The position numbers were made by a program, and so were the translations under genes. This document shows, one piece after another, positions 46,939 to 63,999 of a stretch of DNA of 64,000 nucleotides. The stretch's first letter is position 1; each line of letters starts with the position of its first letter. The stretch covers positions 2,016,001 through 2,080,000 of the forward strand of contig CBDBLO010000002.1 in the NCBI GenBank assembly GCA_965207075.1, read 5' to 3'. Source of the DNA: Nitrosopumilus sp. GTDB lineage: Archaea > Thermoproteota > Nitrososphaeria > Nitrososphaerales > Nitrosopumilaceae. Under the pieces are notes generated by a model. That model ran no database searches and was not told where the DNA came from. It was given only the letters and a program-made list of their open reading frames with translations.

Positions 46939-47163
46939 ACCGCATACCCGTAGCACCGCACGCACACGGGCAGAAAGTCAGGCAGCGGGTGCTAGGTGCC
47001 TCCGGCCTTGGCCGGGGCTCCCATGCGGCAACCGGAAGGCGGCGCCCCCACCCCTCCCACGCCAGGGCAGGGTCACATGCGGCTTTCGGGCTCAAGGGTG
47101 CAACAGACCTACGCCCGGCTTTCAGGCGAGGAAAAGCGCGGGATCCAGCTCACCGGGTTGCGG

Positions 47164-47475
47164 TCATTTGAGCCGGAGGCGCTCCAGCTTGCTCTTACCG
47201 GCAGCCGTACCCCGGCCGCCGGGCTTTTCGGACCTGTCCTTGGCCATCATCTCCGCTACGGCCCTCGCGTACTTGTCGGGGCCTGCAGAGTCGGGCGTAC
47301 TGTCACCCAAGACGCTCAGGGGGCTTATCACAATCTCCCCGTCTCTGACCCGGAACCTGACGCTCTGTCCTTTGCGGATCCCTGCCCTTTCTGCTATGGC
47401 CCGCGGTATTGTCAGGATGAACGATCCCCGGTTTAGCTGTATTCTGCGCTCGATTATTTTCTCTTCCATGACCAT
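47164..47475 (-). CDS. AbrB/MazE/SpoVT-family DNA-binding protein
   Basis: RRIQLNRGSFILTIPRAIAERAGIRKGQSVRFRVRDGEIVISP. Confidence 0.88.
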   Translation of the reverse strand: MVMEEKIIERRIQLNRGSFILTIPRAIAERAGIRKGQSVRFRVRDGEIVISPLSVLGDSTPDSAGPDKYARAVAEMMAKDRSEKPGGRGTAAGKSKLERLRLK

Positions 47476-47504
47476 TGATGCGCCATATCTACTTAAGGGA
47501 CAAA

Positions 47505-47746
47505 AACCGGTAAAGCAGGCAAAGCATGTGTCCGGCCCACCGGTAAAACATGGAAAGCGTGGAAAGCGCGCGTCCGGCCCACCGGTAAAACATGGAAAGC
47601 GTGGAAAGCGCGCGTCCGGCCCACCGGTAAAACATGGAAAGCGCGCGTCCGGCCCACCGGTAAAACATGGAAAGCGCGCGTCCGGCCCACCGGTAAAACA
47701 TGGAAAGCGCGCGTCCGGCCCACCGGTAAAACATGGAAAGCGCGCG
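47505..47746. repeat. Tandem array of six CCGGCCCACCGGTAAAACATGGAAA cores plus one degenerate copy
   Basis: Cores at 47532, 47574, 47616, 47649, 47682, 47715 (periods 42,42,33,33,33). Confidence 0.95.
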
Positions 47747-48120
47747 CATGATTGAGTGACACGCATGGAATGCTCCTCTCGCATATTGGTACTATACCAT
47801 AACGACGACCAGCGCTCTCCCACACATGTCACACTCAGAGGGTTGTTAGGTCGGCGCGTTCCCAATAGGACGGGAATCCATCTCGACCAACGTTTCAAGG
47901 CAACAGAGTCCAAGCGTCACGCGCAAGCCGCACAGGCCCACTTCTGAGCATCCTGTCGTGGCCATCTCTGACGAGTTCGGCCATCAGCAGCTCTTGTTCC
48001 CGATGTCTTCCTCGCCCAGGACGACTGGGGGGCCGATTGCTCGCCGGGCATTGGAAGACTGTTCTCGAGGGCTCTTCGCGCCCGCCTTTTCATTGCCCGA
48101 AACATGGACGGGTAGCCGAT

Positions 48121-48177: not shown

Positions 48178-51100
48178 TTACATGTGGCTGTCGAGGCCGT
48201 CACCCGACTTGTCCTTTTGCGGTGACGTGGTGATGAACATGGCGCCCACGAGCTTCATCCCGTCGTAGTCTATCTCCGCGTCAGCGTCCGTATCCTCTGT
48301 ACCTGCCCCCACCTGTTCGCCTATGAGATCAATCTCCTTGATCAGCATGTCCGCGTCCCCGTCACGCTCGTATCCGTCCACAATATCCTGTAGCTCGACA
48401 CCCCACGGCCGCAGCTGTGCGCTGTTTATGACGGCGTCTGCGCGCCCGGCGCTCTCAGAGTCAATCTTGCCGGACCTGTACGCCTCGGTTATCACGCTTA
48501 TGAGTCTAGTCCGCGTCTTTTCAAACCCAGTGTTCTGGGGGGTTCTGGCGTACTGTCTCACCACGTCGTCACTGTGTATGATTGCATCCCTTGCCTTTTT
48601 GTCTATCCGGATCAGATCTTCAAACGATTTTCGGTGGTCGTCACCATCCATTGGAAGGTACATCTCCTCGTCTGGAAAGCACCGGGCCTTGTTGACAGCG
48701 TCGTACTCGTTTTCAGGTACATACGCCTCGTTCCTTTCACAGTCGTATACCACAAAGTAGACGCGCCTCTCGGGCTTTGTCCTGACATACGCAAGTACGC
48801 ACTCGTTCTTGTCGCCCCCTGATTTGCCACTGCGCCTTCCAATCGGCATGGCGCGCAGCTCGTCCAAACCTATCTTTTTGGCGTGCTTGGCAATCTCGTT
48901 GAGCGGCGTGTTCTGTGGCATGAGATCCGAATCCCTCTCCATCTGCTCCACCACATCTGACGCCGCCGAGCCCTTTTCGCCCAGAACTTTCAGCCGCTCC
49001 CTGAGGTTCCCGTTGTACTGGCGCGGGTGTGGGGTCTCGCCCAGAAGCTCCGCATCAAGGCCAATGACCTCGTTTACGGTGTTTATCTTGTTTAGCAGCT
49101 TTCCCATCAGCTGGAGTATGCCGTCAAGCTCCTTGTCCGGGTAGCACGCCCTTGAGTGTATGATATCATGGCGACTGCCCAGCCTGTCGACCCTCCCTAT
49201 CCGCTGGACAATCCTCATTGGATTCCACGGCAGGTCGTAGTTTATCACGTAGTTGCAGTCCTGCAGGTTCTGCCCCTCTGCCAGCACCTCGGTTGATATG
49301 AGAATGTCAATCGGATCCCCTTCCGGCGGCTGGCCGTCAGACAGGTTGGCCACGGGCGCAAACCTCTCAATGTACTTGGATCGAGTGTCGGATTTGGTGT
49401 CGCCCGTTATGCACTCGACCGTACTGTCAGGAAACATTGTCCGCAGCTCACGGAGTAGGTATCTGGCAGTCGAGATGTATTCTGTAAATATCAGGATCTT
49501 GTGGCTTTCCGACCCCAGCGCGTTCTCCCTTAATATGGCGTCCCGGACCGCCTCGAGCTTTTTGTCGGCGGTCACCCTTCCCACCTCGTCCCACAACCCT
49601 CTCAGTATGACAAGGTCCGACCTCAGATCCTCCCTGAACCTTTCCATGTCGTAGCTTGACCCCATCTCTTCCGTCTCCATGTTCTGCAGCTGTCCAAGGA
49701 CAAACTCGTCCATGTCAAAGTCGCCGTACGTGTCGTCGCCGTACGTGTCGGCCTTGTTCATGATGTGGTTGCCCTTTGCGATGATCTGGTTGAGTTTCCT
49801 TACCCTTACCATCCTACCCTTGTCTGCTATGCTGATGATGTGCTCGTACAGGCGTATCTTGTTTTTGAGGCTTGACTTTACCGCCTCCACGCTGCTCTCA
49901 AACATCTTGAGCAGCAGTATCACCTGCAGGTGTGACAGAACCATGTGTCTTGCCCTTTCGTCCTCCGTGGCCTCCGTATTGTACTGCTCCAATCCGTACG
50001 GGGCCATGGTGAGCCTGTCGACATCCTCCAGTATCTTTTGGAATATGTTGCCGTACAGGTCCGCGAGGCAGTAGTGGATCGGCGAGTACTCGTGCTCCGG
50101 GAACTTGATTTGGTTGCCGTTTATCGTATCTTTGGGATACACCTCCCTGATGTACGAGCGCGTGCGGCGGATCATTATTCCGTCAAGCAGCCTCTGGATC
50201 TTCTCAAGGCCCGCTGCCAGTCCCCCTTCCTTGTTTGCCGCGTCCCTCATGTGCCTGTACAGGTCTGGTATGCCGATGGTGCGCCAAAAGTATGAGTCGT
50301 CGCCGCGGGTAATTATGGACATCTGATAGTACAGATCCATTATCGAATTGTTGATGGGGGTAGCAGACAGCAGGAGCGCCTGTTTTGACTTTCCGATGGT
50401 CATTATCTTTGCCAAGTTCCTGCTACGGTTGGCGTTTTTTGACCTAAAGTTCTGCGACTCGTCTATCAGCACAAAGTCGATGTTTCTGTACTCGTTCCAT
50501 CTCTCAAGGGCGTTCTCGCGCCCGAGCGACTCCATGGTAACTTGCTTGTACACGCTTATTCCGGACTCTTTGAGCTTTTTGTCCCACATGGATCGCAGCA
50601 CTTGGGACGGGGCCACTAGGAGCGCCCTCCTGCCCTCTTTTAGGATCTTCTGGCGCAGGATCTCCATGCCCATGTTGGTCTTGCCTAGGCCTGTGGCATC
50701 CGCGATCATGGCTCCCTGGAATTCTGATAACACGAGCATTGCGGTGTGGACCGCCCCCTTCTGGAACTCTGCAAGCTCTATGCTGTACTGATGTCCGATG
50801 TCGTCGTCTGGCGTCAGAAGCTCACGGTACCTCTCAAATATCATCTTGATGTATACGTCGTACGGGGACGCGGGAATCCCGAACTTTGATGACTCGAGCT
50901 GGTTTATCAGATCCTGCTTGGCGTCCTTGGACTCGGCCCACATGCGGTCAAACCATACGCGGGTCCTCCCAGAGACGGCCGGCTGGTACAGCCCGGCGTT
51001 CAGCTCGTTGTTTGCAGTCAGTCCGCCGTTTGTAAAATTGCTGGAGCCGATGAATACAGTGTCGTCGTCAAATATGTAGCATTTGGAGTGGTTGAACCTG

Positions 51101-51483
51101 GATCTGCCAAGCCTCACCTCGACGTTATCCATGCTCAGAAGGCGCAGGAGCGATGCGGTGTCTGACATCGCGTCCAGCGTCAGCTCCGACTCGTCAAGGC
51201 CGCTCTTGAGCGATACCGCATCCTCGCCGCCCTCTTCGGCCATCTCCTCAAACGTCGCATCCGGAACCAGCGCCGGCTTTCCAAGCAGCAACCGCACCCT
51301 GCCGCCTCTCTCGTGGACTAGTCCGTCAAGCGCGTCCTTTAGCAGTGCGTAACCGGGCACGTTAAAGTAGCCCGTTGATATGTCAAGGTTGTGGGTGAAC
51401 GGTATCTCGGAATTGAGTACGTCGCGCATAGTGATGCCGTCTGTGGTGTTGTCGATTATGTCCTGCTTGATTTTTTTGTTCAT
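48178..51483 (-). CDS. SNF2-type helicase with N-terminal PLD nuclease domain
   Basis: HSKCYIFD...IGSSNFT (HKD); ADATGLGKT, LIDESQ, LSATP, EGQNLQ, YDLPWNP, QRIGRVDR. Confidence 0.92.
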   Translation of the reverse strand: MNKKIKQDIIDNTTDGITMRDVLNSEIPFTHNLDISTGYFNVPGYALLKDALDGLVHERGGRVRLLLGKPALVPDATFEEMAEEGGEDAVSLKSGLDESELTLDAMSDTASLLRLLSMDNVEVRLGRSRFNHSKCYIFDDDTVFIGSSNFTNGGLTANNELNAGLYQPAVSGRTRVWFDRMWAESKDAKQDLINQLESSKFGIPASPYDVYIKMIFERYRELLTPDDDIGHQYSIELAEFQKGAVHTAMLVLSEFQGAMIADATGLGKTNMGMEILRQKILKEGRRALLVAPSQVLRSMWDKKLKESGISVYKQVTMESLGRENALERWNEYRNIDFVLIDESQNFRSKNANRSRNLAKIMTIGKSKQALLLSATPINNSIMDLYYQMSIITRGDDSYFWRTIGIPDLYRHMRDAANKEGGLAAGLEKIQRLLDGIMIRRTRSYIREVYPKDTINGNQIKFPEHEYSPIHYCLADLYGNIFQKILEDVDRLTMAPYGLEQYNTEATEDERARHMVLSHLQVILLLKMFESSVEAVKSSLKNKIRLYEHIISIADKGRMVRVRKLNQIIAKGNHIMNKADTYGDDTYGDFDMDEFVLGQLQNMETEEMGSSYDMERFREDLRSDLVILRGLWDEVGRVTADKKLEAVRDAILRENALGSESHKILIFTEYISTARYLLRELRTMFPDSTVECITGDTKSDTRSKYIERFAPVANLSDGQPPEGDPIDILISTEVLAEGQNLQDCNYVINYDLPWNPMRIVQRIGRVDRLGSRHDIIHSRACYPDKELDGILQLMGKLLNKINTVNEVIGLDAELLGETPHPRQYNGNLRERLKVLGEKGSAASDVVEQMERDSDLMPQNTPLNEIAKHAKKIGLDELRAMPIGRRSGKSGGDKNECVLAYVRTKPERRVYFVVYDCERNEAYVPENEYDAVNKARCFPDEEMYLPMDGDDHRKSFEDLIRIDKKARDAIIHSDDVVRQYARTPQNTGFEKTRTRLISVITEAYRSGKIDSESAGRADAVINSAQLRPWGVELQDIVDGYERDGDADMLIKEIDLIGEQVGAGTEDTDADAEIDYDGMKLVGAMFITTSPQKDKSGDGLDSHM

Positions 51484-54400
51484 TTTACATCATCAAATAT
51501 CTCGAGCGCTTTTTTTCTCATTTCACCGTAAAACTCCTTGAGATTGCTGTTGTCCCAGATTATTTCCTTTTCGTTCCACAAGTCGGGGTTTTCTCTGAAC
51601 AGCTTAAAGGATTCTAGTATTGTCTTGTATTCTTGTTTGTCAATGCCATATGCCTTTGCAACTATAACGTCGAGTCGGGCTGCAATGTCTATGCGATCTG
51701 CGACGGTCAGATATCTATTGGGAATATGCATAGTTTCTGCCAATCCTGCGAAGTCGGTATGACCAACTAGTAATTTAGCGGCCAGATTGGAGATCTCATT
51801 TTTGTATTTGTTTGGAATTGAAATGTCTGAAATAAGTGTGGAGAGGTGCACTTGTATAATCTGCCTTGAAATGAAATCAAAGGTAGTAGAGTTGAATACG
51901 CCACACAGATATACCATTGTGCGAATATACGCGTCATCTAACAATAGTGTTCCATCCCGTTTTATTAGAACGGAGCGGAGGGCATACGTGTGAAATGTTT
52001 TTGGTGGGATAATAGTTGCAATTGTGGTTCGCATATTTGTTGGACCTGATACGTCTCGAAATACAAGTCTGTAAGAATTGTAAAATTCTCGGTGCTTTTT
52101 AGCGTACTTTGGCTTGTCTTCCCGTTTGAGTCCGGCTCTCGACTGTGCGGTGAACATGGGTCTGGACCATGTGTGATTATATTGGTGAATCGTTTTGCCC
52201 TCATGTATGGACCATCCCCTGCCGTCTTCGCGGAACAGTTTAGAGTCGTCTGTTTTGCGAAATCCGTCAGCAAATGATATAGACATACCGTCTTCAGATA
52301 ATGCGTCTGCCAATTTTGGATGTTTGTATAGCTTGACGAGTATGTCACTAGTATTATACATGTTTTCTGGTATGGTTAAAGTTTCGGGGAACATTTCTCG
52401 AATTTTTATCTTGGAGTGTTTGCCAAATTTTTCCTTTTCTATGGTGTGGTCAATTAATGATGATAAGTGGTGTAGGTAAAATCCTACAGGGAATTCGTCC
52501 TTTTTGGTTTTTGAATTCCTGAGTGTCAGTAGCATGAATCTATAGCTAGAGTGAATGTCAAATATTTTTCCTTTGTTTTCAAATACGTATAACTGAATTA
52601 TCTCCTTGTTTAGTATCTCTTGTCTGATATCTGTGGAACCAGAGGATGCTAGAACCTGTGATGGGATAACCATTGATATAACTCCATTCTCTGATAATAG
52701 TTGGAACGTTCTCTCAAGTATCAGTTTTGAAAGATCTCGGGCGTCACTTCCTTGCATCTGATATGTCGATGCAGTTGAATAAAAATTAGTTTTTTCCAGA
52801 AATGATTTTTTGTATAATTCATACTCTGTTTTTATTTCGTCGTTTTGAAGTAATATATCCATAATTTCTTCCTTTTTGGCCTTTGTTGGAAGTGATTTAA
52901 ACGCAGGATAGTACGGAGTAAAGAATTCATCATCGAATGGTTTTATTTTATCCCATGGCGGGTTTCCTATGATGACGTCAAAACCATGCCGTGCATCGGT
53001 AAACGCGTCTCGCATCTCCAGCTCCCAGTGAAAGAATCTTCGTCGCTCTGCAATCTCCGAGACCTTGCGGCGTGCGTCCCGTATTGTCTTATCCTCGTTT
53101 TTACCGTACCGCCCGAACCGGTGGACAAACTCCATGCCGGACTTTTTTGGCAACATCGTGTCGTCGATTATCGATGCGGCAAACGCGTCAAGCACCCTCT
53201 TGGTATTGGATACGGATTCAGCGTATTTTTCGTACAGGGCCTCGCTACGCCGTACCTGCGAAACTGTGATATCCGGACTCGTCGAGACATCTTCCAACAT
53301 CGCGTTTGACTCCTCTCCAGGCATCCAGTCATCAAGGCTCTGATTCTTAACTCCATTCAGGTCATCAAGAGATACGCCTATCGTCGAGTCGCCCGTTCTG
53401 ATGTGGTGATCCATGTAGGTAAACGGCACCCCTATTGCAAAAGAATCAAGCCACAATGCAAGTTTTGCAATCTCAGTCGCGGTCGGGTTGCTGTCCACGC
53501 CGAATATGCACCTCTTCATTATCTTGCGCTTTAGCAGGACGTCATGCGTCAGGAGGTTGAGATCTATTGACACTCCCATTTTCTCCTGCTCGTCAACGAC
53601 GGTCTTGCGATCAACTTCCAGCTCTTCGAGCAGTGGATGCTTCGGATGTTTCTTCATGGTCTCAGTGGCCCACGAGGTCAGCTGGTTGAGTGCCTCGACC
53701 AGAAAATGGCCGCTGCCCATCGCCGGATCCAGTACTTGGATGTCAAGAAGATGCTCCATGCACGCGTCGCGGTTTTCAGGTGTCGGGTTTTTGGCGTATG
53801 ATGCGACGTCGCGCCCGATCTTAGAGGATCTGTCTGCCAGTATCGGCTCCAGTCCACGGCGTACGAGAAACTTTACGATCTCATCGGGCGTATAGTAGCT
53901 TCCGGTGCCCTTGCGCATCGCCAGGCCTCCCTTTGAGGCCAAGTACAGATCATTTTTTTTGTACGAATAGTTTGATTCGCGGGACGCCCGCACCTGCACG
54001 ATCTTGTGTCCCTTTACAAGCAGCATGACGTCCTTTTTGGCCTGCTGGATCGAGAATTCCATGACGCTCTCAAGTATGTTGCCAAGGTGTCGGACTCCGA
54101 GGCTTGCATAGTCGATGGTGTCCCCGTTGTGCTCAAGCAGGTCGCGCAAGGCGGGCACGAGCCAGCGGTTCTGAATGCTCATCCTGTCTATATCCGGATC
54201 ATGTCGGAAGAGGTTGCCGTTGTACTGCGGCAGGTTGTTTTCTGGACTCCCGTCCCGGATTCCCGCGAACATCTTTAGTAGGTGCTTCCAGCACGAGTCA
54301 CCGTCCTGCTCTTCGTGCATGTCAAGCTTCCCTCTGAGTCCGCGAAGCGACATGTTGGCTGCATACTTTTTGTCAGATATGGGCAGTAGGTTTCTTGACT

Positions 54401-55466
54401 CGGCATACGCCACAAACCAGACACGGTATATTATGCGCAGTGCGGCCTCCTTGGCAGAGGCAAGCTCCTCAGCATCAAAGACTGTTTTCATGTTATGGTT
54501 TAAGATTCCCTTTGCAAGATTTAGCAGGACACCATCCTGACTCATGATGCGCTCAGACAGGTTTTCCTCCAGCTGTGTTGCAAACTCCTTGCCCTGATCA
54601 AAAAAAAGGTCTATCCGAGGGCTCTTGCCAGCATAGGATGCGTATCCAAATATAATATACAGATACTGCAGCACCGTATCAGACGGCTCGGCAAGGTTCA
54701 GCTCAAAATAGTTGGTGGTGGATGCAGACACCCTGCTGGTGTAGAGTCGCCACTTTGCGCCGTTTGTGAGTATCACCCACCGGTGCTTGGAGAGCGCAGA
54801 TACTGCCCGGTAGCTTGGCACTACGTCGTCGCGGCTCTCACGTATGCTAAAGTTCTCTTGGTCCGTGACTATGACATGTACTGTCCCACTGCGAGGCTCG
54901 CTTGTCTTCCTCCATCCCAAGGCCTTCAAGAGACTCTGCGCGTCGGTGCCAGCGTCGCGCAGGGCCTTTATGGCGCCCTCGCTGCCGGACGCGTCATCAA
55001 ACACGCGATTTCTCAGGTAGTGGGTGGAGAACAGTCCCCTGTTCTCAAAGTCGTACGTGGTGGAAGGTATCGCATCTATGGAATCCTCAAGACGAGCAAT
55101 GAGTTCGATGTTGTTTTTTGCATCTCCGACATTGTTTGCCTCTAGTATCTTTGCTATCCTGCTGTATTCTGCATCGCTGTCAAGCGACACCATGTGAGTC
55201 TTGTCCGGGGTGCGTATGAGGAGTTTTTTGAGGCCGGATGCCAGTATCACGCAGGAGGGGAATCTCCTGACCACCCGCTTGAGATCTGTAACAGTCTTGG
55301 GGGCTTTTCCACTCTGCCCCCCGTCCACGATCAGTATGGGTGTGTTTCTTGACTTTGATGCGTGGTTGAGGCTGTAACAGTCCCAGCCTTCCAATTCCAG
55401 AGAGCGCCTTGTGTCATATGACACTCCTAGAGACGCAAGCAGTTGCTTGGTATGGGCCCTTGTCAC
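51480..55466 (-). CDS. Type IIG (Eco57I-like) restriction-modification enzyme
   Basis: ILTNG..WRLY nuclease-region motif, YNGNLF, GSYYTP, LDPAMGSGHFL, IGNPPW; C-terminal TRD; ATGA overlap with helicase. Confidence 0.92.
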   Translation of the reverse strand: MTRAHTKQLLASLGVSYDTRRSLELEGWDCYSLNHASKSRNTPILIVDGGQSGKAPKTVTDLKRVVRRFPSCVILASGLKKLLIRTPDKTHMVSLDSDAEYSRIAKILEANNVGDAKNNIELIARLEDSIDAIPSTTYDFENRGLFSTHYLRNRVFDDASGSEGAIKALRDAGTDAQSLLKALGWRKTSEPRSGTVHVIVTDQENFSIRESRDDVVPSYRAVSALSKHRWVILTNGAKWRLYTSRVSASTTNYFELNLAEPSDTVLQYLYIIFGYASYAGKSPRIDLFFDQGKEFATQLEENLSERIMSQDGVLLNLAKGILNHNMKTVFDAEELASAKEAALRIIYRVWFVAYAESRNLLPISDKKYAANMSLRGLRGKLDMHEEQDGDSCWKHLLKMFAGIRDGSPENNLPQYNGNLFRHDPDIDRMSIQNRWLVPALRDLLEHNGDTIDYASLGVRHLGNILESVMEFSIQQAKKDVMLLVKGHKIVQVRASRESNYSYKKNDLYLASKGGLAMRKGTGSYYTPDEIVKFLVRRGLEPILADRSSKIGRDVASYAKNPTPENRDACMEHLLDIQVLDPAMGSGHFLVEALNQLTSWATETMKKHPKHPLLEELEVDRKTVVDEQEKMGVSIDLNLLTHDVLLKRKIMKRCIFGVDSNPTATEIAKLALWLDSFAIGVPFTYMDHHIRTGDSTIGVSLDDLNGVKNQSLDDWMPGEESNAMLEDVSTSPDITVSQVRRSEALYEKYAESVSNTKRVLDAFAASIIDDTMLPKKSGMEFVHRFGRYGKNEDKTIRDARRKVSEIAERRRFFHWELEMRDAFTDARHGFDVIIGNPPWDKIKPFDDEFFTPYYPAFKSLPTKAKKEEIMDILLQNDEIKTEYELYKKSFLEKTNFYSTASTYQMQGSDARDLSKLILERTFQLLSENGVISMVIPSQVLASSGSTDIRQEILNKEIIQLYVFENKGKIFDIHSSYRFMLLTLRNSKTKKDEFPVGFYLHHLSSLIDHTIEKEKFGKHSKIKIREMFPETLTIPENMYNTSDILVKLYKHPKLADALSEDGMSISFADGFRKTDDSKLFREDGRGWSIHEGKTIHQYNHTWSRPMFTAQSRAGLKREDKPKYAKKHREFYNSYRLVFRDVSGPTNMRTTIATIIPPKTFHTYALRSVLIKRDGTLLLDDAYIRTMVYLCGVFNSTTFDFISRQIIQVHLSTLISDISIPNKYKNEISNLAAKLLVGHTDFAGLAETMHIPNRYLTVADRIDIAARLDVIVAKAYGIDKQEYKTILESFKLFRENPDLWNEKEIIWDNSNLKEFYGEMRKKALEIFDDVK

Positions 55467-55604: not shown

Positions 55605-56618
55605 TCAATCCCTACCATCTGACTTGTTATCGATAACCGTCCAGATCCTCTGCAGCGGAATCTCCGATTTTAATTCCTCATCGAGTGAGTCATAGTTCTC
55701 CGTCAGCTCGCCTACAATTTTATCTTGATCCCACAACCGTGTACGAAAAAACGCCCTGTTTATCTCGCTATCGGCCGCCTTGGTAAGGCCGCCCCAAGCC
55801 ACCAGTATGCCATAACTTGCGCCAAAGCTTTGGATGACACCCTCCAGCTGCCGCAGCACCGTGACATTCACCGGCGCGCGTGACGACTTTACCTGTATGC
55901 ATATCTTCGGATCATCAAAGCCTAGCTTGCCCGATGCCGCAAGTATGTCCACGCCGCCGTCGGGTCCTGGCGGTGAGCGTTTCGTGACATATCCCTTTGC
56001 GATTAGAATTCCATCAATCAGCCGTGCAAGATTGTGTCCCATAAATTTACTCTCAAGAAACCTGACTATACGGTCCTTTGACAGCACCTCCAAGTCAAAT
56101 GGCTGGTTTGCATCATCCCCGCCGTCTACATCTCCTCTCCGTATGTGTCTGTCACTCAGCATATCCCTTGCGCGAGATTCGGCGTCCCTCGCATTGATCC
56201 GTCCTACTGTCAGGAGGGAGCCCAATGAATACAATATGTCTTGGTCAAATTCCGACCGCATTATGGTTTTTTTCCAGATTACAGGCCTCTGATGTAGCGT
56301 GTTCGGTGAGCTGTGGTTGTATTGGTAGTCGCCAGTGACCTCCCCTACTGCCACAGAAGGCTGCAACTTTAGCGGCGTCGCCACTAGGTCGCCTTTTTTG
56401 ATACTGTGCAAAAAATTCCATATTTGGCCTACATGGTTTGCTACAGAGGCTTTTTTTCGATCTGTATATGTTTGGGCATACAGATCCGAAAGCTGCTCCT
56501 TTTGATGTATGCCAGACAGGTCTGGCAGATCGTTCCATCCTATTGCAATGATGCCCTTCTCTTGTATCTCCTGTTCACGTTCGCCGTATTTGCCTGCTCG
56601 CACAAACCAGAAAGTCAT
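55605..56618 (-). CDS. Mrr-like type IV restriction endonuclease
   Basis: WFVRAG N-domain; GPDGGVDILA...IQVKS catalytic motif. Confidence 0.9.
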   Translation of the reverse strand: MTFWFVRAGKYGEREQEIQEKGIIAIGWNDLPDLSGIHQKEQLSDLYAQTYTDRKKASVANHVGQIWNFLHSIKKGDLVATPLKLQPSVAVGEVTGDYQYNHSSPNTLHQRPVIWKKTIMRSEFDQDILYSLGSLLTVGRINARDAESRARDMLSDRHIRRGDVDGGDDANQPFDLEVLSKDRIVRFLESKFMGHNLARLIDGILIAKGYVTKRSPPGPDGGVDILAASGKLGFDDPKICIQVKSSRAPVNVTVLRQLEGVIQSFGASYGILVAWGGLTKAADSEINRAFFRTRLWDQDKIVGELTENYDSLDEELKSEIPLQRIWTVIDNKSDGRD

Positions 56619-56666
56619 GTGTTGTGTGCCGTACGTGATGATTAAAGCATGCCGGTTACGATTTCA

Positions 56667-57187
56667 GGTACTGGTACAAATTCGTGATATGGGCACGGAA
56701 TCGATTACTGGGAAACTTATTGTAGCGGCCCCACCCGGCCTGCAAACTTACAGGAATCAAAGAAAAGAGTGCCCTTGCGGGCGTTGGTCTAAGTGAACAG
56801 TTTTATGACTGCTATGACCAGACCCGTGTTACGCGTATGATCTCGATGTTTACCCGCATTTGGATCATCTTCCGCGAGTTTTCTGTTCACGGCGCCTATA
56901 GTGGCGTCCACGTTATCAAGACCAGATGTGTGGTCTATCTCCCTAACTACTCGTTTCACAACGAGTCAAAACCTAGGAGGACGAGATAAGCCCACCCTCA
57001 AATTCTTTTCTAATGTCATGATCCAAGAGACTTACATCTGTATATTTAATACTTGTTGCTTCCAGATTCGGCGTTGCCGTAGACTCCCCCAAACACTTCT
57101 AACGGCCTACCTAGACTGTGTTCTTGGTGTCGGTATTTAACGACACGGGCCAGACTGACGCCCATATCACGAATTTGCACCAGTACC
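56667..57187. mobile_element. Non-autonomous IS6-like element (MITE)
   Basis: 29-bp inverted repeat with 1 mismatch at 56666-56694 and 57160-57188; ends GGTACTGGTRCAAA resemble IS6/IS26 ends; no transposase inside. Confidence 0.7.
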
Positions 57188-57224
57188 TAATCCATGTGAT
57201 CCCTCTTAGTCCGCTTGTTCCAAG

Positions 57225-58235
57225 CTATTCAGAGCAAATGCAGACCTTACATTTTGTGATAAATTTTGAATTTATTTTAATCTTTTTAGATTTCAAATTT
57301 ATAGGAAGCTGTCGGTTCTTCATTCTACGCTTTGCTAGTTTTATAATAGTTTTTTGCGGCAAGTAATACATCATTCCCCTAGCACCTATATAATTACAAT
57401 TATGAGATGCCAACGCTTGACCAAAGTTAAGCGCGTTTTCCAAACGCTTCCTACTCACTAACCTGATATTTTTGCAATCTTGTAGACAATGAATCATTCC
57501 AGCGCTTGACCAGTCACCAGATCCAGCAGCATCAACCAGATTATTCACTGGAAATGAAGATAGCGTTTTCCATCCCGTGTCTCTTAAAAAATTTGTCTTG
57601 TACTGTAGTCCACTTTCTCCCATTGTTTGAATTTCCAGTGGGACAGATATGCCAAGTTTTTCAAGACTTGTTGATCTATTGTAACAATGTTTTACAATGT
57701 CCGCAATCTTTAGACATTGCAAAAATAAACTGTTGGAGAGAAATTTTGGGGGTTCAAACACAATAATTGCATTGTGTTGTTTCAGGTAGCAAGCTAATTT
57801 ATATGCGCTAGGTGTGGCACGATCAAAATAAAATACATTTGCAGGAGGAAGTTGATTTTGGATGGTTTTCAGTAGCTTGAGTGTAAAGATCTTTCTTTGG
57901 GGTAGCCATATCCCATGTTCACACTTGAGATAAAACCTATGATAGGGCCGCTTCCCTGCAAAAACTCTTTCTATTATTCGGGGCGTTCTTGTGTCGCTTT
58001 CTTGCAGGATGAAGTCCGTGTTAGTTCCCCATTTTTCCATATCTTCGATCATTCGATTGCCCTCCACATCTCTACCTAGTCGTGCCATGGGAAATGTTCT
58101 CCACCCAAAACTGGCAAGTATAGTAAGTACGTTGCCACAAGAACCGCCTGCAAAAAAACTTGGTGGCTGTGTGTTACTATCGTATATGACATCTAGAGCA
58201 ACTAGGCCGGTACCCACACATATTGAATCAACCAC
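57225..58235 (-). CDS. PfkB/ribokinase-family carbohydrate kinase
   Basis: AGGSCGNV, QTMGESG, VDAAGSGD. Confidence 0.88.
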   Translation of the reverse strand: MVDSICVGTGLVALDVIYDSNTQPPSFFAGGSCGNVLTILASFGWRTFPMARLGRDVEGNRMIEDMEKWGTNTDFILQESDTRTPRIIERVFAGKRPYHRFYLKCEHGIWLPQRKIFTLKLLKTIQNQLPPANVFYFDRATPSAYKLACYLKQHNAIIVFEPPKFLSNSLFLQCLKIADIVKHCYNRSTSLEKLGISVPLEIQTMGESGLQYKTNFLRDTGWKTLSSFPVNNLVDAAGSGDWSSAGMIHCLQDCKNIRLVSRKRLENALNFGQALASHNCNYIGARGMMYYLPQKTIIKLAKRRMKNRQLPINLKSKKIKINSKFITKCKVCICSE

Positions 58236-58339
58236 GATTCAGCACCCGTGTTACCAAATGAATTCCGAACTTTTGAAGCTGCGAAGACAGTGTTAAAGAT
58301 GTTAATATCGAGTAGAATGCTACAAGCAGCTCGCTGATA

Positions 58340-59452
58340 CTATACATAACATTCACCTGTAATCCATAACGAAAATAATTGAGCAAAAGACGGATTCCAC
58401 CTACTAATCATCTCTCTATCCATGATATAACCATCTGAGGGGACGTATGCAATACCAACTTTTTCATTGTTTTGAATACCCTCTTCATATGCCACTAGGA
58501 AGACCCCCAATGAAATCAGCTTGCTTGACAAAGCAGAAATTGCAACTTTACATTTACCCAAAGGGTAGAGCGAGCGTCTGTAGCCGTGGATTACTCGATG
58601 AATTGCACGATAAGCCTCAAAAGGGTTTTGTTCAGCGGCGTATATCATATTCCGGATCTCTATATCAGACTCTTCCACAAGAAATTTTCTATTTTCTAGC
58701 ATGAGATCGTCTCCACGTCTAGGATTCTGAGATGGAAACGGCAATACTGGGCATATCTCTTTAGCCGATACTTGATTTTTAATTCGTATCATCTGATCGT
58801 ATCTACCTTCTCCCAGCACTGGAATCCAGATCATTACCTCATCTTCACCAGAGGTAATGTCCAAGTCACCAGTGAAACCATGCAAGTATGATGCTTTATC
58901 TACCAAGCCAGATTTTCTAATGGCTTTATCTACAGAAGCATCCTCTGCAACTACAACATGGAGGTTTATGCGTGAAGTATCCTTCAAAATATGTAATGTC
59001 TTACCTATTAGTGGCATGTATACATCAAGGGGCATAGACGATATATCAATTATTATGTCTGAGTATTTTTCAAACTCTCCGAGATCTTTGAATATTTCAG
59101 CGGCTTTTCGGGAACCAATGCGGTATCCATCATCAGCTTTCATTGAAATATTTTTGATTTGAATAGTGCCTACAGCATTCACTAATTTTTCCAATCTAGA
59201 TTTATTTTGTTGAATCTCAACGTCATATTTGGTAGATGGAGAATTTTTGCCCTCATCAAATTGGATCAAAATAAAGTCACGAAGTCCATAGCTAGGATTT
59301 TTCATAATTGCTTCTGCGCACAAGCACATTCGTGGATCAAATCCTTGGCCTAAAACTATCAGAAGATTTCGCTTTTTTGCCAAATGTGTTTTCCAGAAGT
59401 CATCGAATGAATCATTCTTAAAAAGCAAGTAGTCCTCCCAGCGCAATGTCAT
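58340..59452 (-). CDS. Hypothetical protein of the five-gene operon
   Basis: GFDPR, IIDISSMP, WIPVLGE, PVLPFPS, LSSK; ATGA overlap with the ATPase stop. Confidence 0.85.
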   Translation of the reverse strand: MTLRWEDYLLFKNDSFDDFWKTHLAKKRNLLIVLGQGFDPRMCLCAEAIMKNPSYGLRDFILIQFDEGKNSPSTKYDVEIQQNKSRLEKLVNAVGTIQIKNISMKADDGYRIGSRKAAEIFKDLGEFEKYSDIIIDISSMPLDVYMPLIGKTLHILKDTSRINLHVVVAEDASVDKAIRKSGLVDKASYLHGFTGDLDITSGEDEVMIWIPVLGEGRYDQMIRIKNQVSAKEICPVLPFPSQNPRRGDDLMLENRKFLVEESDIEIRNMIYAAEQNPFEAYRAIHRVIHGYRRSLYPLGKCKVAISALSSKLISLGVFLVAYEEGIQNNEKVGIAYVPSDGYIMDREMISRWNPSFAQLFSLWITGECYV

Positions 59453-61338
59453 CCAACCTCTTTCATCTGAATTTTTGGAGACATGAGATCGAGCCAATTG
59501 CATAGCTCACTAGGGGTCTTTTTCCTCCAACCCCCTCTACCTAAAGGAAGACCAAAATGCACGCATAGCGATCGATTCAAGTAGAAAAGAATAAACTCGT
59601 TACCTATCTTTCCCTGCTTTGCATAATATTTAGCTTTAAGCAAGTTGTGGCTGAGACAGGTTTGTAAAACTTCAGATAATTGTTTGTATTTTCCTGTTGG
59701 TTGTAGTTGTTCTATGAATTTTCTGTAGTCTGAATTTGAGATTCCTATGCCAGTAACGCCGGGGACATATGGTGCGTTAGGCTTTATCGTCTGCTCTATT
59801 GCAAAGTCTCTAAATTTCGTAAGAAAGCTCATCGCTTGCATACCGTTATGTATTCCTGCTATTCGTTTCCAACGTGTACTTGCAATGTCCTTGATTATCC
59901 TTTCTTGTGTCCTTGGTGAAAGACTAGAATTTTTATCGTTTTTAATCATTTGTGATTCTAGTTCGTCAAGTAATGCAGAAGCCACCTCTAGAAATTGATC
60001 GATGTTGTACGTAGCTAATTTCGCGATATTTTGAAACCCAAAATAGTATGGAATATCATACTCATGATATAGGAAGAATTCTGCTACGGCATCAAGATTA
60101 CCGTCAGAATCAAGCTCGTCATCCAGGGGGATGTCAAAGAGCTTAGTCTGTGAATTAGCTTCTTCTCGTGCAATTTTTATCTCCAGCACACGCCAGCTAA
60201 TCAGATTATCAAGAGTTGGACTAGATCTGGAGCGCAGGTCTGCTATCCACTTGTTATAGATGTCTGTTCGCCCAGATACTGTCTCAAGCTTGGCTTTGAT
60301 ACTATCCAAACATTGTGTAAACGTGGGGGTCCACTCTGGTGCATCTATCACATCTACAAGATGCTGATCTAGTGAGTTCGTTTCAACGTCTAAGCTAGCC
60401 ATGCTGGTTCTTTGTCTAGATACTGATCTTACAAATTTTTCAAATGATCGCGGCCGAGATTCCCAAAACTCTTCAAGAAACACTCCGTCGTATTCTCTTC
60501 CAAGTATTTCTGGAATTAAATCTGGCGTCTCAAGTGCTTCTAACCTCTCCGCAAGCCATATGGAGATTGGAAATCGTCTTGGCACTATTGCACGAAGCAA
60601 TGCATTTCTCTGGGGTTTGCGCAGCTCGTGCATATCATCTAGCATAACTAATGTTTTGGACACTACACTCTTTCCATCAAGAAGAATATTTTTTGGAGCA
60701 ATAATTTGTAAATGTTCAAAATCAAGCATTAGTTGTACGTTATCATTCCAAGGAACATCGAAGCGATTTATTAATCTGTTTATTTCCAGTTCTCGTGTCA
60801 ATGCTTGTTCATAGAGCTCCTTCCCATTGCATGGGAGATTCAAAGAATTTACTACTGTGCCAATTGGTTTGGATATGCGTATTCGTTCTAGATCCTGAGT
60901 CTCCAGACCATTCAACTTTAATATTCCAAGCAAAGCTGTTATAATTAGCCTGTAACCAATAGATGAGAAAAGGTATTGCATCTTTCTTTCGTCAGGTATA
61001 TCCAAATCCAATATTGAGCCGTATTCAGACAATCTAAGATATACTCCTAGAAGCGCAGGCCCGTTATCATTCATAGCACCGTACTTCGTTAATATCTGGA
61101 AGAGATCTCTATACTGAGATTGGCGCTGAAATATTTCATGCAACGAGTCTGGACTAAATAACCTAAGTAGCGACGTCTTACCACCGCCAGGACTGCTTCT
61201 AAAGATTACTGTTTTATTTAAAAAATAATCGTCACGCAACACTTCTAAAATTCCCGAGCCAAATAATCTTAGAAATATCATTTGGTTTTCAATTGTCTCT
61301 GATGAGCGCATTGTAAATGGATTGCGAGGTGTTTTCAA
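59449..61338 (-). CDS. P-loop ATPase (ORC/CDC6- or STAND-like AAA)
   Basis: NPF at N-terminus, SSPGGGKTS Walker A, VMLDDMH Walker B. Confidence 0.8.
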   Translation of the reverse strand: MKTPRNPFTMRSSETIENQMIFLRLFGSGILEVLRDDYFLNKTVIFRSSPGGGKTSLLRLFSPDSLHEIFQRQSQYRDLFQILTKYGAMNDNGPALLGVYLRLSEYGSILDLDIPDERKMQYLFSSIGYRLIITALLGILKLNGLETQDLERIRISKPIGTVVNSLNLPCNGKELYEQALTRELEINRLINRFDVPWNDNVQLMLDFEHLQIIAPKNILLDGKSVVSKTLVMLDDMHELRKPQRNALLRAIVPRRFPISIWLAERLEALETPDLIPEILGREYDGVFLEEFWESRPRSFEKFVRSVSRQRTSMASLDVETNSLDQHLVDVIDAPEWTPTFTQCLDSIKAKLETVSGRTDIYNKWIADLRSRSSPTLDNLISWRVLEIKIAREEANSQTKLFDIPLDDELDSDGNLDAVAEFFLYHEYDIPYYFGFQNIAKLATYNIDQFLEVASALLDELESQMIKNDKNSSLSPRTQERIIKDIASTRWKRIAGIHNGMQAMSFLTKFRDFAIEQTIKPNAPYVPGVTGIGISNSDYRKFIEQLQPTGKYKQLSEVLQTCLSHNLLKAKYYAKQGKIGNEFILFYLNRSLCVHFGLPLGRGGWRKKTPSELCNWLDLMSPKIQMKEVG

Positions 61339-61339
61339 A

Positions 61340-62476
61340 TCAATCGCCTTTATATCGCTGTACTCTAGGAAACAATCCCGGTATACTCTTGCCTACATTT
61401 TCATACCACAATATAGTCATTGAGTTGTTTGGGCAGTTATGGCTCATAATTAATGGTAGGCCACATTCGTCAAACCCCAAATATGGTTTAGTATGTTTGC
61501 CATTTTTATACTGTGATGTTACAATATCTTTATACTGAAAATTGTTTTTTAATATATCTTCCATCTTGTCAAGTTCATCGGAGCTCAAATTCACAGAATC
61601 ATCTATTTCTTGTATGGCCCACACATTCACTTGTATAGATGTGTGTGCAACATGTTTGCGCACTTCATCTCTAATCCATTGTATGGCACGAGTAGTAGCA
61701 ACATACAGCACCACACATACTTTTAATTTTTTTATATCAATCGCTTTTGCAATAAAATTAAACTTGTCGTTATCATTAATAATCTGCTTAAGAAATTTTA
61801 TTATTTTGCCTGTTTTTATTATTTTACCTGTCGCATTTTCCTTTTCTTCGCGTATGCAGCTTTTACCACTCGCAGAAAAGTCGTCAATGAGAAAAACTAT
61901 TTCATATTTTTCATCCGCTGGTTTTTTAGTAAGATTTTTTATATCACAATCTAACTCTTCTTTAAGTTCATCTGCCTTTTCTTCGGTAATCAAATATGCA
62001 GGATATATTTGCTCATGCTTAAGAGACGCAGATAGTCTTCTGAACAGATCTAGTTTGGCACCGTCGCTCAACCCTAAAAACAAACATTTTCTTTGCATTA
62101 TTTCGAAATTTACATTATTTACAATTTTTTTAATAGCAAACCTTTCAATGTTATATTTCTCAGCTACAAGGTTAATGAGATATGGCCGTATTGTATCCAT
62201 GTACGTCATCTGGATCAGGTGTTCAAGTTCTTTTGTAGATATGAATACCAGATTTCGTTTGATATATTCATAAGCTGTGTTTTTCTCTTCGGCGCTTGGA
62301 AATCGCTCTAACCAGAGTACCAAATTCCCAATGAACCTCATTCCAGGGGCAAATTGTTGATATTCGTCATATTTATAATCCGCAAGCATTTGCAGATCGT
62401 ATCTTTCTGTCGTTAACTTACTAGGGGGCCAGTCAATTACCTTTGTAAGTAGCTTTCTTGTTAATGAATCTTTCAT
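61340..62476 (-). CDS. Phosphoribosyltransferase-like protein
   Basis: VFLIDDFSASGKS PRPP-binding-like loop; LGF...HNCPNNS. Confidence 0.78.
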   Translation of the reverse strand: MKDSLTRKLLTKVIDWPPSKLTTERYDLQMLADYKYDEYQQFAPGMRFIGNLVLWLERFPSAEEKNTAYEYIKRNLVFISTKELEHLIQMTYMDTIRPYLINLVAEKYNIERFAIKKIVNNVNFEIMQRKCLFLGLSDGAKLDLFRRLSASLKHEQIYPAYLITEEKADELKEELDCDIKNLTKKPADEKYEIVFLIDDFSASGKSCIREEKENATGKIIKTGKIIKFLKQIINDNDKFNFIAKAIDIKKLKVCVVLYVATTRAIQWIRDEVRKHVAHTSIQVNVWAIQEIDDSVNLSSDELDKMEDILKNNFQYKDIVTSQYKNGKHTKPYLGFDECGLPLIMSHNCPNNSMTILWYENVGKSIPGLFPRVQRYKGD

Positions 62477-63999
62477 TTTGTGCCTCCAGCAACATTCAGT
62501 GTGAGATACCCATCATAAAGCACAGCGTTTTTAAAATATTCCAGAACCCCACTTTCTCCATACAGTCCATACGGCAATGTATTCCAACAGCTGTCAGGGT
62601 TATTACTCGTTTCGCCTACGCTTAGGGAGAACTTCGTGCTTAGCAGCTCGAAATCATTGCCCGGATACTCTCCTTTGTCACCAACACACAGAACCTGTAA
62701 TTGTTGCGGTAACTTTCTCTGAATATGGTCGACTAGACTTAGTTTAGATACTTGGCACGGTATGATGTCAACGGAATGGATTGACTCTACTATCTTTACG
62801 TTTTTGTGTTCTTTGGCTATCATATACAGGGTATGAGCCAAGTCACTTGGAAGATGGTCATTCGTTTGAATTGAGATCTGTTTTGGTCGTCGTTCGATAG
62901 TACAATCATCAAGCACGGTTCTGTAATCCAGATGCGACATAAATCCCATTAATGCTTCGTCTATTGTCTCATCATCATCTAGCGTGAAGTCATCACTTAA
63001 ACCTCTTATAATGCCGCCATTGTAATACCCGATATGTACTCCCGATTGCCATTTTCTTGGGATTATTTTTTGCAATACTTTTCTCACAGATCTACCTCGT
63101 CCTGTCGCTATTCCTATGACAATGTTGTTGCTTAGGAGTGTTGTGATAAGAGATCCGATCTCTTTTGATGGATAATCAGATCTATGTTTGGAATCACATA
63201 CAGTACCGTCGTAGTCAAATACCACGGCACCAAACTTCTGTCCGGAAATATTTTTTGCAAATTTTCTGAACAATTTTAGCCGTGTCTTGGTTTCAGATAC
63301 GTCGGGATTCGCATGGCCAAACTTTCTGCAGATTGCCATCTTTTCGACGCTGCACCATGCGTCAGGAACAGCACGTGGCATTGTGAGATGATATATCTTT
63401 CTTCCAAATCTAGCAACGTGTGGTTTGCCAGGATCAATTCCCTTTGCAGTGCCGAAAAGATTTACCGCATGCAATACTTGAATAATAAGCGCTATTGATG
63501 CAGCAGGTCCCTCATAACCTGTATCAAATCTTGCTTGTGGCATGTATTCCGGAATAAGTGCAAGAGTCTTGCTTGCAAGCTTTCTGCAATTCGGGTTTAC
63601 AAAAGCAACTACGGATGTCTCATTTCTATTTTTGTCTAGCCAGTTATGCCTACCATGCGCAAAGTTGCGATAATCTGCAAGCTGCACACTACACAGGCCT
63701 GCTTCAACCAATTTTGACTCCAAGTCTACTGCAGCAGTTTTGCCCCAATTATCATAAAGGCACACTATCGTATTTCGACTGATAATATCTGTCAATCTTC
63801 TCTCAAGATCCTCTGGTTTCCACTCTCCACATAGTTCGTCCAGTTGTGGCATCTTGAAGGGCCACATGTGTGTCTTCATGTATGCTCTACATAACCAAAC
63901 CATGCTGGCTATCAATGAGTTTGTTGCAAGGAAGCCGTCCTTGCCTGTAGGAATGTCTATTGAATGCACCAAATCTAGACTACTGGCCTTTTTTACTAA
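62473..63999 (-). CDS. SIS (sugar isomerase) + HAD-IIB hydrolase fusion, 5' end outside window
   Basis: GFLATNS, LESKLVE, NFAHGRH (SIS/GlmS-like); FDYDGT, ATGR, SK, GD...ND (HAD); frame open to the window edge. Confidence 0.82.
   Translation of the reverse strand, partial: LVKKASSLDLVHSIDIPTGKDGFLATNSLIASMVWLCRAYMKTHMWPFKMPQLDELCGEWKPEDLERRLTDIISRNTIVCLYDNWGKTAAVDLESKLVEAGLCSVQLADYRNFAHGRHNWLDKNRNETSVVAFVNPNCRKLASKTLALIPEYMPQARFDTGYEGPAASIALIIQVLHAVNLFGTAKGIDPGKPHVARFGRKIYHLTMPRAVPDAWCSVEKMAICRKFGHANPDVSETKTRLKLFRKFAKNISGQKFGAVVFDYDGTVCDSKHRSDYPSKEIGSLITTLLSNNIVIGIATGRGRSVRKVLQKIIPRKWQSGVHIGYYNGGIIRGLSDDFTLDDDETIDEALMGFMSHLDYRTVLDDCTIERRPKQISIQTNDHLPSDLAHTLYMIAKEHKNVKIVESIHSVDIIPCQVSKLSLVDHIQRKLPQQLQVLCVGDKGEYPGNDFELLSTKFSLSVGETSNNPDSCWNTLPYGLYGESGVLEYFKNAVLYDGYLTLNVAGGTK

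Follow-up and report, generated by a model that had tools for sequence, protein, structure and literature searches.

The window analysed here is a stretch of 64,000 nucleotides from the genome of Nitrosopumilus sp. (assembly GCA_965207075.1, contig CBDBLO010000002.1, positions 2,016,001 to 2,080,000; G000:C2:2016001-2080000). At its end lies an operon of five genes, encoding a SIS-HAD fusion (gene 1), a phosphoribosyltransferase (PRTase, gene 2), an ATPase (gene 3), a tandem-CARF protein (gene 4) and a PfkB-family kinase (gene 5). This cassette combines recognisable domains and intact catalytic motifs with strict co-inheritance, mobility and a defence-island context. The function we favour, to which we give about an even chance, is that of a self-contained, mobile conflict system, most likely directed against phages or plasmids. 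The CARF protein would gate the ATPase, which would in turn control a PRTase consuming phosphoribosyl pyrophosphate (PRPP), while the SIS/HAD and PfkB proteins would process the product or the acceptor.

A CARF protein and a defence PRTase are thus joined in one compact cassette, whose spread reaches from Thaumarchaeota, methanogens and cyanobacteria to Planctomycetota, Bacteroidota, Myxococcota and plasmids of Rhizobiales. To our knowledge, CARF sensors are understood almost solely as receivers of cyclic oligoadenylates made by Cas10, and defence PRTases are known solely from retrons and toxin-antitoxin pairs; we know of no characterised defence system using the three sugar-phosphate activities of the cassette. 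Most likely, we are dealing with an anti-phage system, a candidate for CARF-controlled, PRTase-armed immunity. It bears on the ligand of a CRISPR-independent CARF protein, on the gating of an ORC-type ATPase and on immunity via PRPP or ribosyl chemistry. As the cassette is self-contained and only about 7.2 kb long, it should be easy to clone and test.

Conservation of the five-gene set

We scanned genomes with an alignment of CARF6, the family of gene 4, using one genome per species. This yielded 244 pattern matches, of which 202 were confirmed as relatives, and the best 80 loci were taken. These best 80 of the 202 loci belong to at least 13 bacterial and three archaeal phyla, and come from Thaumarchaeota, Bathyarchaeia, methanogens, Myxococcota, Cyanobacteria, Planctomycetota, Bacteroidota, Verrucomicrobiota, Chloroflexota, Acidobacteriota, Bacillota, Armatimonadota and Nitrospirota, among others. 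The CARF gene, present in all 80 loci, is accompanied by the ATPase in 79, PfkB in 78, the PRTase in 76 and SIS-HAD in 72, and all matches of the window's proteins lie on the CARF strand. The full set of five is found in 71 loci, and 70 of these keep the gene order of the window (the exception, L040, reads PRTase-ATPase-CARF-SIS/HAD-PfkB), which bears out the initial annotation, made from the sequence alone, in treating the five genes as one unit. All nine incomplete loci (L027, L031, L033, L039, L048, L051, L055, L057, and L066) show a contig edge where the absent gene is expected. Two loci (L041 and L058) have a degraded look, with shortened or interrupted genes. Pairwise-distance matrices of the four larger proteins, compared over 64 loci, correlate with r values of 0.87-0.95 (0.94-0.95 within the PRTase/ATPase/CARF triad), values that are descriptive only, because kinship among sequences inflates them.

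More distant relatives (27-35% identity) are carried by 19 plasmid records, nine of which are conjugative. The PRTase-ATPase-CARF order is kept in all eight plasmid loci examined, whereas SIS-HAD (8/8) and PfkB (7/8) are shifted in position, and in one plasmid copy no PfkB lies within 7 kb. As plasmids keep the order of the triad while the other two genes move or drop out, PRTase-ATPase-CARF is the core of the cassette, and the two sugar-phosphate genes are its near-constant companions. A NADAR-family gene adjoins the cassette in five of the eight plasmid loci (L083, L086, L087, L088, and L090) and a helix-turn-helix (HTH) regulator in three; among the 80 chromosomal loci, NADAR is found near L030 only. 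Two plasmid copies have Shedu and RES genes nearby. On plasmid pRt1078 of Rhizobium tumorigenes, a second PRTase-ATPase-CARF triad (L083 11282-15568), without SIS-HAD or PfkB of its own, is located 2 kb from the full cassette, with a patatin-like phospholipase gene between the two.

The plasmid copies, one of which is located beside repABC, lend some weight to an alternative in which the cassette is an addiction or stabilisation module of plasmids and islands, its PRTase being a toxin restrained by the other genes, with no anti-phage role. ShosT-type PRTases are indeed toxins of toxin-antitoxin pairs, and the 19 plasmid records, with their nine conjugative members, point in the same direction. 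However, an addiction module of five genes and about 7.2 kb would be a large one, and the copies are mostly chromosomal and located in defence-type neighbourhoods. Toxin-antitoxin function and phage defence are also compatible with each other. We regard a pure addiction module as improbable.

The CARF protein and the ATPase

Of all parts of the cassette, the tandem-CARF protein encoded by gene 4 tells us most. The initial annotation had correctly counted this gene as part of the operon but had listed its product as unknown, and this second part does not stand, as the product is identifiable. It matches the PADLOC CARF6 model PDLC01910 (E 1.8e-109; residues 21-386 on profile positions 2-347 of 348), with no Pfam family matched. 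Its AF2 model (predicted local distance difference test, pLDDT, 88.8) aligns best in VIA-align with Can1 (6sce; Z 15.0, root-mean-square deviation (rmsd) 3.0, 232 residues aligned across 46-358), and rows 1-18 of that search are CARF proteins throughout. Foldseek returned generic tandem Rossmann matches only (TM up to 0.26), and the family profile found no solved relative by sequence. Judging from sequence and model, gene 4 is predicted to encode a nucleotide sensor, namely a stand-alone tandem-CARF protein of the CARF6 family without a fused effector domain. The family comprises 835 clusters at 50% identity, nearly all of 350-400 amino acids (aa). The one longer fusion found joins CARF6 to PfkB (P0127, 740 aa, on a single contig) and may be either genuine or the product of a frameshift.

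The predicted product of gene 3 is an AAA+ ATPase of the ORC-CDC6-like family; no role is assigned to its large C-terminal part. The protein matches PF24389 with 71.1 bits (cut-off 27), residues 48-603 covering positions 39-567 of the 571 of the profile. In 29 sequences, G51, G53 and K54 of Walker A and D234 of Walker B are invariant, and D235 is nearly so. The Atlas search returned only the protein's own family, the nearest clusters carrying PF24389, and the family profile found no solved relative by sequence. ATPases of the ORC/Cdc6 clade are described as recurring in defence systems such as BREX (BrxC, BrxD), where they have been posited as sensors of invader DNA or as switches (PMC12839542; bioRxiv 10.64898/2026.10.19.760177).

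Structure modelling supports binding between these two proteins. We modelled the ATPase with CARF residues 18-387, using custom-made alignments, in three runs and with three controls. The complex score was 0.72 (0.72, 0.67, and 0.72 in the individual runs), against 0.00 for the best control; among 80 solved complexes, 58 attain the 0.72 mark, as do 2 of 110 mismatched pairs, counts that are only rough given the custom alignments. Contact agreement between runs was at least 77% and partner pLDDT at least 85. On the ATPase core, the modelled interface involves residues 12-17, 50, 104-111, 129-137, 176-194 and 238-241 and adjoins Walker A and B; on the CARF side, it involves segment 197-221, between the two CARF domains. 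Conserved interface residues include A179, E183 and D191 of the ATPase and G199, A204, G209 and F210 of the CARF protein. As neither family has a solved relative by sequence, the model is unlikely to recall a known complex. Control of an AAA+ ATPase by a CARF domain has a reported precedent in RtcR (PMC11090510).

The PRTase as likely effector

Gene 2 is predicted to encode a type I PRTase of the Pfam family PRTase-CE (PF24390; 83.5 bits versus a cut-off of 27, E 2.9e-23, residues 55-362 on profile positions 4-245 of 253). PADLOC model PRTase_III-A also matches over nearly the whole protein (4.4e-13). The best VIA-align match of the AF2 model (pLDDT 88.5) is the uracil PRTase 1vst, with a moderate Z of 9.6 (rmsd 4.0, 162 residues aligned). 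Rows 1-22 of that search all have the PRTase fold, the best being uracil, hypoxanthine-guanine and orotate PRTases. The model had no Foldseek match at E up to 0.001, and the family profile matched no solved chain at E up to 1, except for one unrelated match at 0.17. All 29 sequences share D198, D199, F200, S203 and G204 of the PRPP loop (DD-F-x-x-S-G).

This PRTase is likely to be the effector of the cassette, rather than a mere metabolic step, because its family includes proven retron effectors. The PRTase-like effector of Retron-Eco11 is reported to cause abortive infection with a loss of about 50% of PRPP (PMC12746101), and type III-A1 retrons are reported to carry the PRTase-CE family (PMC13712802), the partners of type III retron PRTases being described as winged-helix DNA-binding proteins (PMC7736814). 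Similarly, ShosT is described as a toxin combining a hydrolase with a PRTase, the DD mutant of which is harmless (PMC11961720), and defence-associated PRTases have been reported as one clade (bioRxiv 10.1101/2025.09.30.679545).

The sugar-phosphate enzymes and a possible dedicated small molecule

The product of gene 1 is predicted to consist of an N-terminal double SIS part, of the GlmS/NagB-II phosphosugar isomerase type, and a C-terminal HAD-IIB sugar-phosphate phosphatase. Its HAD half just passes the HAD-IIB model TIGR01484 (42.0 bits versus a cut-off of 41.8) and matches Hydrolase_3 at 9.8e-07. The Pfam SIS match (E 0.0044, 17.3 bits) falls below the cut-off of 25, and the family profile (A2) matches two-SIS structures of glucosamine-6-phosphate deaminases or phosphosugar isomerases (8eol and 3hba, 4.5e-05), as well as HAD sugar phosphatases. 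Residues G55, G57, G58, E228, E233, H249-H252, D396, D398, G399, T400 and G574/D575...N582/D583 are invariant in 29 of 29 sequences, and the HAD motifs D.DGT and GD...ND are found in 71 and 72 of the 72 copies, respectively. The SIS half shows a conserved K..E followed by HG, at positions where GlmS-type isomerases have their catalytic Lys/Glu/His.

Gene 5 is predicted to encode a divergent sugar or nucleoside kinase of the PfkB family (PF00294; 6.6e-15, 55.7 bits versus a cut-off of 25.8). All NCBIfam equivalogs are far under their cut-offs, the best of them (about 1e-05) being ribose-1-phosphate kinase, fructokinase and ribokinase; among solved chains, the profile matches fructokinase 5ey7 best (8.7e-10), followed by ketohexokinases. 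G30 and G31 of the GG motif and G238, G240 and D241 of the GxGD motif are invariant in 15 of 15 sequences. Most copies (alignment A5) also have a CPxCG insert, together with a CxxC at the C-terminus; these are unusual among PfkB kinases and may form a zinc site; the window's protein has C-E-H-G at the insert and CKVCIC at its C-terminal end.

These enzymes support a serious rival to the favoured reading, in which all four enzymes would form one pathway using PRPP to build a riboside or ribotide of a non-canonical type. The PRTase would make an N-ribosyl bond, the GlmS-type SIS part would isomerise it in an Amadori-type step, and HAD-IIB and PfkB would set the phosphorylation state. The product would be either a ligand read by the tandem CARF protein, that is, a dedicated second messenger, or an antimetabolite against phage replication, with ATPase and CARF as the regulator. 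Several observations argue for such a dedicated small molecule. All four enzymes have intact active sites and are co-inherited, the sugar enzymes being near-constant; the fusion of SIS with HAD suggests successive steps; the SIS part belongs with aminosugar isomerases/deaminases and the kinase is closest to ketohexokinases and fructokinases; and the NADAR genes of five of the eight plasmid copies fit a ribosyl-N product needing erasure. Together, they point to N-ribosyl or ketosamine chemistry. In addition, no cyclase was found in the host (see below), and PRTases and HAD phosphoesterases of Ter systems have been predicted to make a nucleoside-type signal (PMC7824862).

On the other hand, homology does not place any step of this pathway above a curated cut-off, a pyrophosphokinase that would serve a non-ribose sugar is missing and, if the product is a signal, the downstream killing effector is not visible. 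Moreover, the second triad of pRt1078 lacks its own SIS-HAD and PfkB, and one plasmid copy lacks PfkB within 7 kb. We consider small-molecule synthesis possible but distinctly less probable than the favoured reading. If it holds, this would be the first CARF pathway to make its own messenger without a cyclase: the ATPase would read a cue, PRTase, SIS/HAD and PfkB would build a PRPP-derived riboside, the asymmetric tandem CARF protein would read it and NADAR would erase it in some lineages; alternatively, the product would be an antiviral nucleoside analogue. We hold this version, too, to be a minority possibility.

NADAR also bears on another alternative, in which the PRTase would attach phosphoribose as a mark to a DNA or RNA base, or to a protein, of the invader or the host, guided by the ATPase, and NADAR, SIS-HAD and PfkB would remove or process the mark. 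NADAR proteins are N-glycosidases that reverse guanine ADP-ribosylation, and their genes adjoin plasmid copies of the cassette. The ORC/Cdc6 clade binds DNA and, as noted, its defence ATPases have been posited as invader-DNA sensors (PMC12839542; bioRxiv 10.64898/2026.10.19.760177); retron type III PRTases are likewise described with winged-helix DNA-binding partners (PMC7736814). However, no PRTase is known to modify polymers, NADAR is found near just one of the 80 chromosomal loci, and sugar-phosphate enzymes are suited to small molecules. This macromolecular target thus appears unlikely.

Mobility and defence context

The cassette is horizontally mobile. Its CARF gene is present in only two of 36 other genomes of the same genus (one full copy at 53% identity and one partial) and in none of 24 genomes from other families. 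Two same-genus loci (L093 in G014 and L094 in G009) carry C-terminal CARF fragments (query residues 142-386) beside an intact PfkB, and look like decayed copies of the cassette. The phage collection gave no match to the cassette, and none of the 33 pattern matches in IMG/VR encodes a relative.

We compared 133 flanking ORFs (open reading frames) from 17 diverse loci with Pfam; six further ORFs of L073 were left out. In 12 of the 17 loci, a gene of defence or mobile-element type lies within 9 kb, a count that is supportive rather than statistical, as it has no matched control. The neighbours are Nmad2 and a Swt1-type HEPN protein (L011); an SNF2 helicase, a zeta toxin and a DUF1156 methylase (L025); HsdR/HsdM and Tn7-like genes (L029); Fic (L045); Fic, an MmeI-type enzyme, a Cas4-like nuclease and DUF488 (L054); an OLD-TOPRIM ATPase and a UvrD helicase, together Gabija-like (L078); Schlafen/AlbA_2 and ArdC (L024); a relaxase, a resolvase and ThiF with an E2-like protein (L067); and integrases or recombinases (L006, L022, L023, and L043).

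The same evidence bears on the possibility of an ordinary catabolic or salvage operon, with a regulator, for a sugar, an Amadori compound or a nucleoside. PfkB paired with a double SIS recalls FrlD/FrlB of fructosamine catabolism, and the NCBI pipeline PGAP labels some copies 'sucrose-6-phosphate hydrolase' or 'fructokinase'. Yet every curated enzyme model is far under its cut-off, no transporter family matches any cassette gene (Pfam, PADLOC, NCBIfam), the GC content is foreign and the distribution patchy and mobile, and a CARF protein and an ORC-like ATPase have no place in catabolism. We consider this explanation very improbable. The initial annotation had likewise preferred a defence or mobile-element context to sugar catabolism, and the window's own neighbours (Mrr, a type IIG enzyme and a PLD-helicase), the 12 of 17 loci and the presence in 2 of 36 genomes agree with it.

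The host genome, which is 95% complete, has no match to Cas10 (TIGR02578 and TIGR02577, 0 matches) or to the SMODS cyclase (PF18144, 0 matches). Thus, the cassette would either be self-sufficient or read a cue from the host or the phage.

Proposed working and points against it

Under the favoured reading of a CARF-gated, PRTase-armed conflict system, the tandem CARF protein would dock on the ATPase core beside the ATP site, as in the model, and the binding of a nucleotide-like ligand to the CARF pocket, or its loss from it, would switch the ATPase. The ATPase may also read invader DNA, as posited for other defence ATPases of the ORC/Cdc6 clade. It would then license the PRTase to move phosphoribose from PRPP, draining PRPP and cutting off nucleotide supply, as documented for the retron effector homologous to it; alternatively, the PRTase may ribosylate an acceptor. 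Finally, the SIS/HAD-IIB fusion and PfkB would act on the phosphoribosyl product or acceptor as isomerase, phosphatase and kinase, either to pull the reaction forward or to reset the system. The initial annotation had also proposed that the ATPase senses infection and that kinase and phosphatase form a write-erase pair on a phosphorylated metabolite; both ideas are conjectural.

Several points weigh against this reading. Its weak point is that simply draining PRPP, in the manner of retron III-A or ShosT, does not call for SIS, HAD-IIB or PfkB; the near-constant presence of these enzymes argues for a multi-step small-molecule pathway and is only loosely explained. The reading names neither the CARF ligand nor the source of that ligand, and the cassette contains no classical killing domain. 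Similarity of the PRTase to retron effectors is modest (E 4e-13), the retron partners, reverse transcriptase (RT) and multicopy single-stranded DNA (msDNA), appear to be absent, and three of the five proteins have no PADLOC match. As to the complex, its score expresses a model's confidence, was obtained from custom alignments and concerns the ATPase-CARF pair. Five of the 17 loci (L003, L005, L021, L032, and L063) have no clear defence or mobile neighbour, and the neighbour counts carry the limit given above. In the literature searched, we found no experimental work on any cassette member.

Gene layout, junctions and composition

The ORF list of the window gives five intact genes on the minus strand, co-oriented as had been annotated (Table 1). 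Reading beyond position 64000, in an extension of the window (L002, G000:C2:2072001-2092000), completes gene 1, which ends at window coordinate 64401. Glycosyltransferase, amino-acid kinase and class IV aminotransferase genes, of housekeeping type (Pfam), come after gene 1, so the operon comprises exactly these five genes. The junctions noted by the initial annotation hold: the ATGA overlap at 62473-62476 and the 1-nucleotide gap at 61339 follow from the coordinates, and the ATGA overlap at 59449-59452 holds provided that gene 4 starts at Met18 (59452). This start is favoured because alignments of homologues begin at residues 18-21, the genome's own gene call is 362 aa long (P0007) and residues 1-17 have a pLDDT below 50 in the model. 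Downstream of PfkB, a terminator-like hairpin may mark the end of the operon, on weak evidence, as the consensus scan found four such sites in the region versus 6.3 expected.

The operon was also rightly described as AT-rich in a GC-rich host: GC content is 0.34-0.42 over 57000-63999, versus 0.60-0.66 at 40000-41500 and 46000-48000. Pfam confirms the Mrr, type IIG and PLD-helicase genes directly downstream. At 51500-53000, inside the type IIG gene, GC content falls to 0.38-0.41, pointing to a mosaic origin.

Table 1. Features of the operon and its surroundings (window coordinates unless L002 is given)
Feature	Position	Strand	Length	Remarks
Gene 1, SIS-HAD	62473-64401	-	642 aa	runs past the window end; full length from genome, L002 6473-8401
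Gene 2, PRTase	61340-62476	-	378 aa	ORF
Gene 3, ATPase	59449-61338	-	629 aa	TTG start
Gene 4, tandem CARF	58340-59452	-	about 370 aa	from Met18; longest ORF, to 59503, 387 aa
Gene 5, PfkB	57225-58235	-	336 aa	ORF
Terminator-like hairpin	56977-56999	-		about 225 nucleotides downstream of PfkB stop; consensus scan only
Mrr_cat nuclease	55605-56618	-	337 aa	Pfam
Type IIG enzyme, Eco57I/N6_Mtase/MmeI_Mtase	51480-55466	-	1328 aa	Pfam
PLDc_2 + SNF2/DEAD helicase	48178-51483	-	1101 aa	Pfam
MazE-type antitoxin domain protein	47164-47913			
DprA/DNA_processg_A-like protein	45682-46464			
DUF3800 protein	44793-45536			further island content, as are the DprA-like and MazE-type proteins
Five ORFs	39155-44862		164-563 aa	without Pfam family
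Small ORFs	56509-56796, 57118-57366			no Pfam family matched
ORF directly upstream of gene 1	64478-64819 (L002 8478-8819)	-	113 aa	without Pfam family
Promoter-like site	L002 8991-8963			the 113-aa ORF sits between site and gene 1

Previous recognition of the cassette

No system model of PADLOC-DB v2.0.0 fits the cassette; only the CARF protein and the PRTase match, and they match models of other systems. In the literature searched, to which this claim is limited, we found no description of the five-gene set. The initial annotation had not recognised it as a named system, and to that extent it stands, as neither a PADLOC system nor a paper naming the set was found; calling the set unrecognised would nevertheless be too strong, given that PF24389 and PF24390 exist. 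These ATPase and PRTase families are consecutively numbered, which implies that curators have seen both central proteins. Since full-length Pfam families and PADLOC CARF6 models exist, the neighbourhood has probably been noticed computationally. The 2020 census of CARF proteins reportedly defined CARF6, and may describe its neighbourhood. In the plasmid records (RefSeq PGAP and, likewise, one GenBank record), the three core proteins are annotated as hypothetical. Earlier domain calls for SIS and HAD, PRTase, P-loop ATPase and PfkB agree with Pfam, NCBIfam and the family profiles, with SIS supported by the family profile and below the cut-off in Pfam.

Comparison with known systems

With type III-A retrons such as Retron-Eco11, the cassette shares the PADLOC PRTase_III-A match, the PRTase-CE family and the DD PRPP loop. 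However, it has an ORC-like ATPase and a CARF protein where the retron has RT/msDNA and a winged-helix protein, and it adds three sugar-phosphate activities. Pfam found no RT family in the five cassette proteins or the three downstream neighbours, and identity with a retron was rejected on this ground. ShosTA resembles the cassette in pairing a PRTase with a phosphohydrolase in a setting of defence, the toxicity of ShosT being reported as DD-dependent (PMC11961720). Unlike the cassette, in which the hydrolase is of the HAD-IIB sugar-phosphatase type and fused to SIS, ShosT fuses its PRTase with a pyrophosphatase-type hydrolase and has a DNA-binding antitoxin as partner. The architecture thus differs, and the PRTase profile matched no relevant chain among the solved structures searched, which may not include ShosT.

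The PRTase and HAD module of Ter systems, for which a nucleoside-type signal in a conflict system was proposed from computational prediction (PMC7824862), is also comparable. The cassette, however, lacks TerB, TerC and TerD, and Ter, for its part, includes no CARF, ORC-like ATPase, SIS or PfkB.

Metabolic parallels concern the PfkB kinase paired with a GlmS-type double-SIS enzyme, as in FrlD/FrlB and FraD/FraB, which are fructosamine kinase/deglycase pairs. Context and partners differ from those of these pairs, and the cassette has no transporter. Catabolism of the Frl type was rejected (fructoselysine 6-kinase NF007321, 13.1 bits versus a cut-off of 247), as was the ADP-heptose pathway GmhA/HldE/GmhB (heptose-7-phosphate kinase TIGR02198, 17.8 bits versus a cut-off of 345).

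Among CARF proteins, Can1 and the ancillary proteins of type III CRISPR systems are similar in having a tandem CARF in one chain (Z 15.0 over 232 residues), but the CARF protein of the cassette has no fused nuclease or effector, and is modelled as acting in trans on the ATPase. As neither Cas10 nor a SMODS domain (CD-NTase) was found in the 95% complete host genome, roles as a type III CRISPR accessory and in CBASS, respectively, were rejected. Finally, RtcR offers a parallel for the control of an AAA+ ATPase by CARF, as reported (PMC11090510). RtcR is a single polypeptide with an ATPase of the sigma54-activator type and transcription as its output, whereas the cassette, in which Pfam found no HTH, divides the two roles between two proteins and uses an ATPase of the ORC/Cdc6 type.

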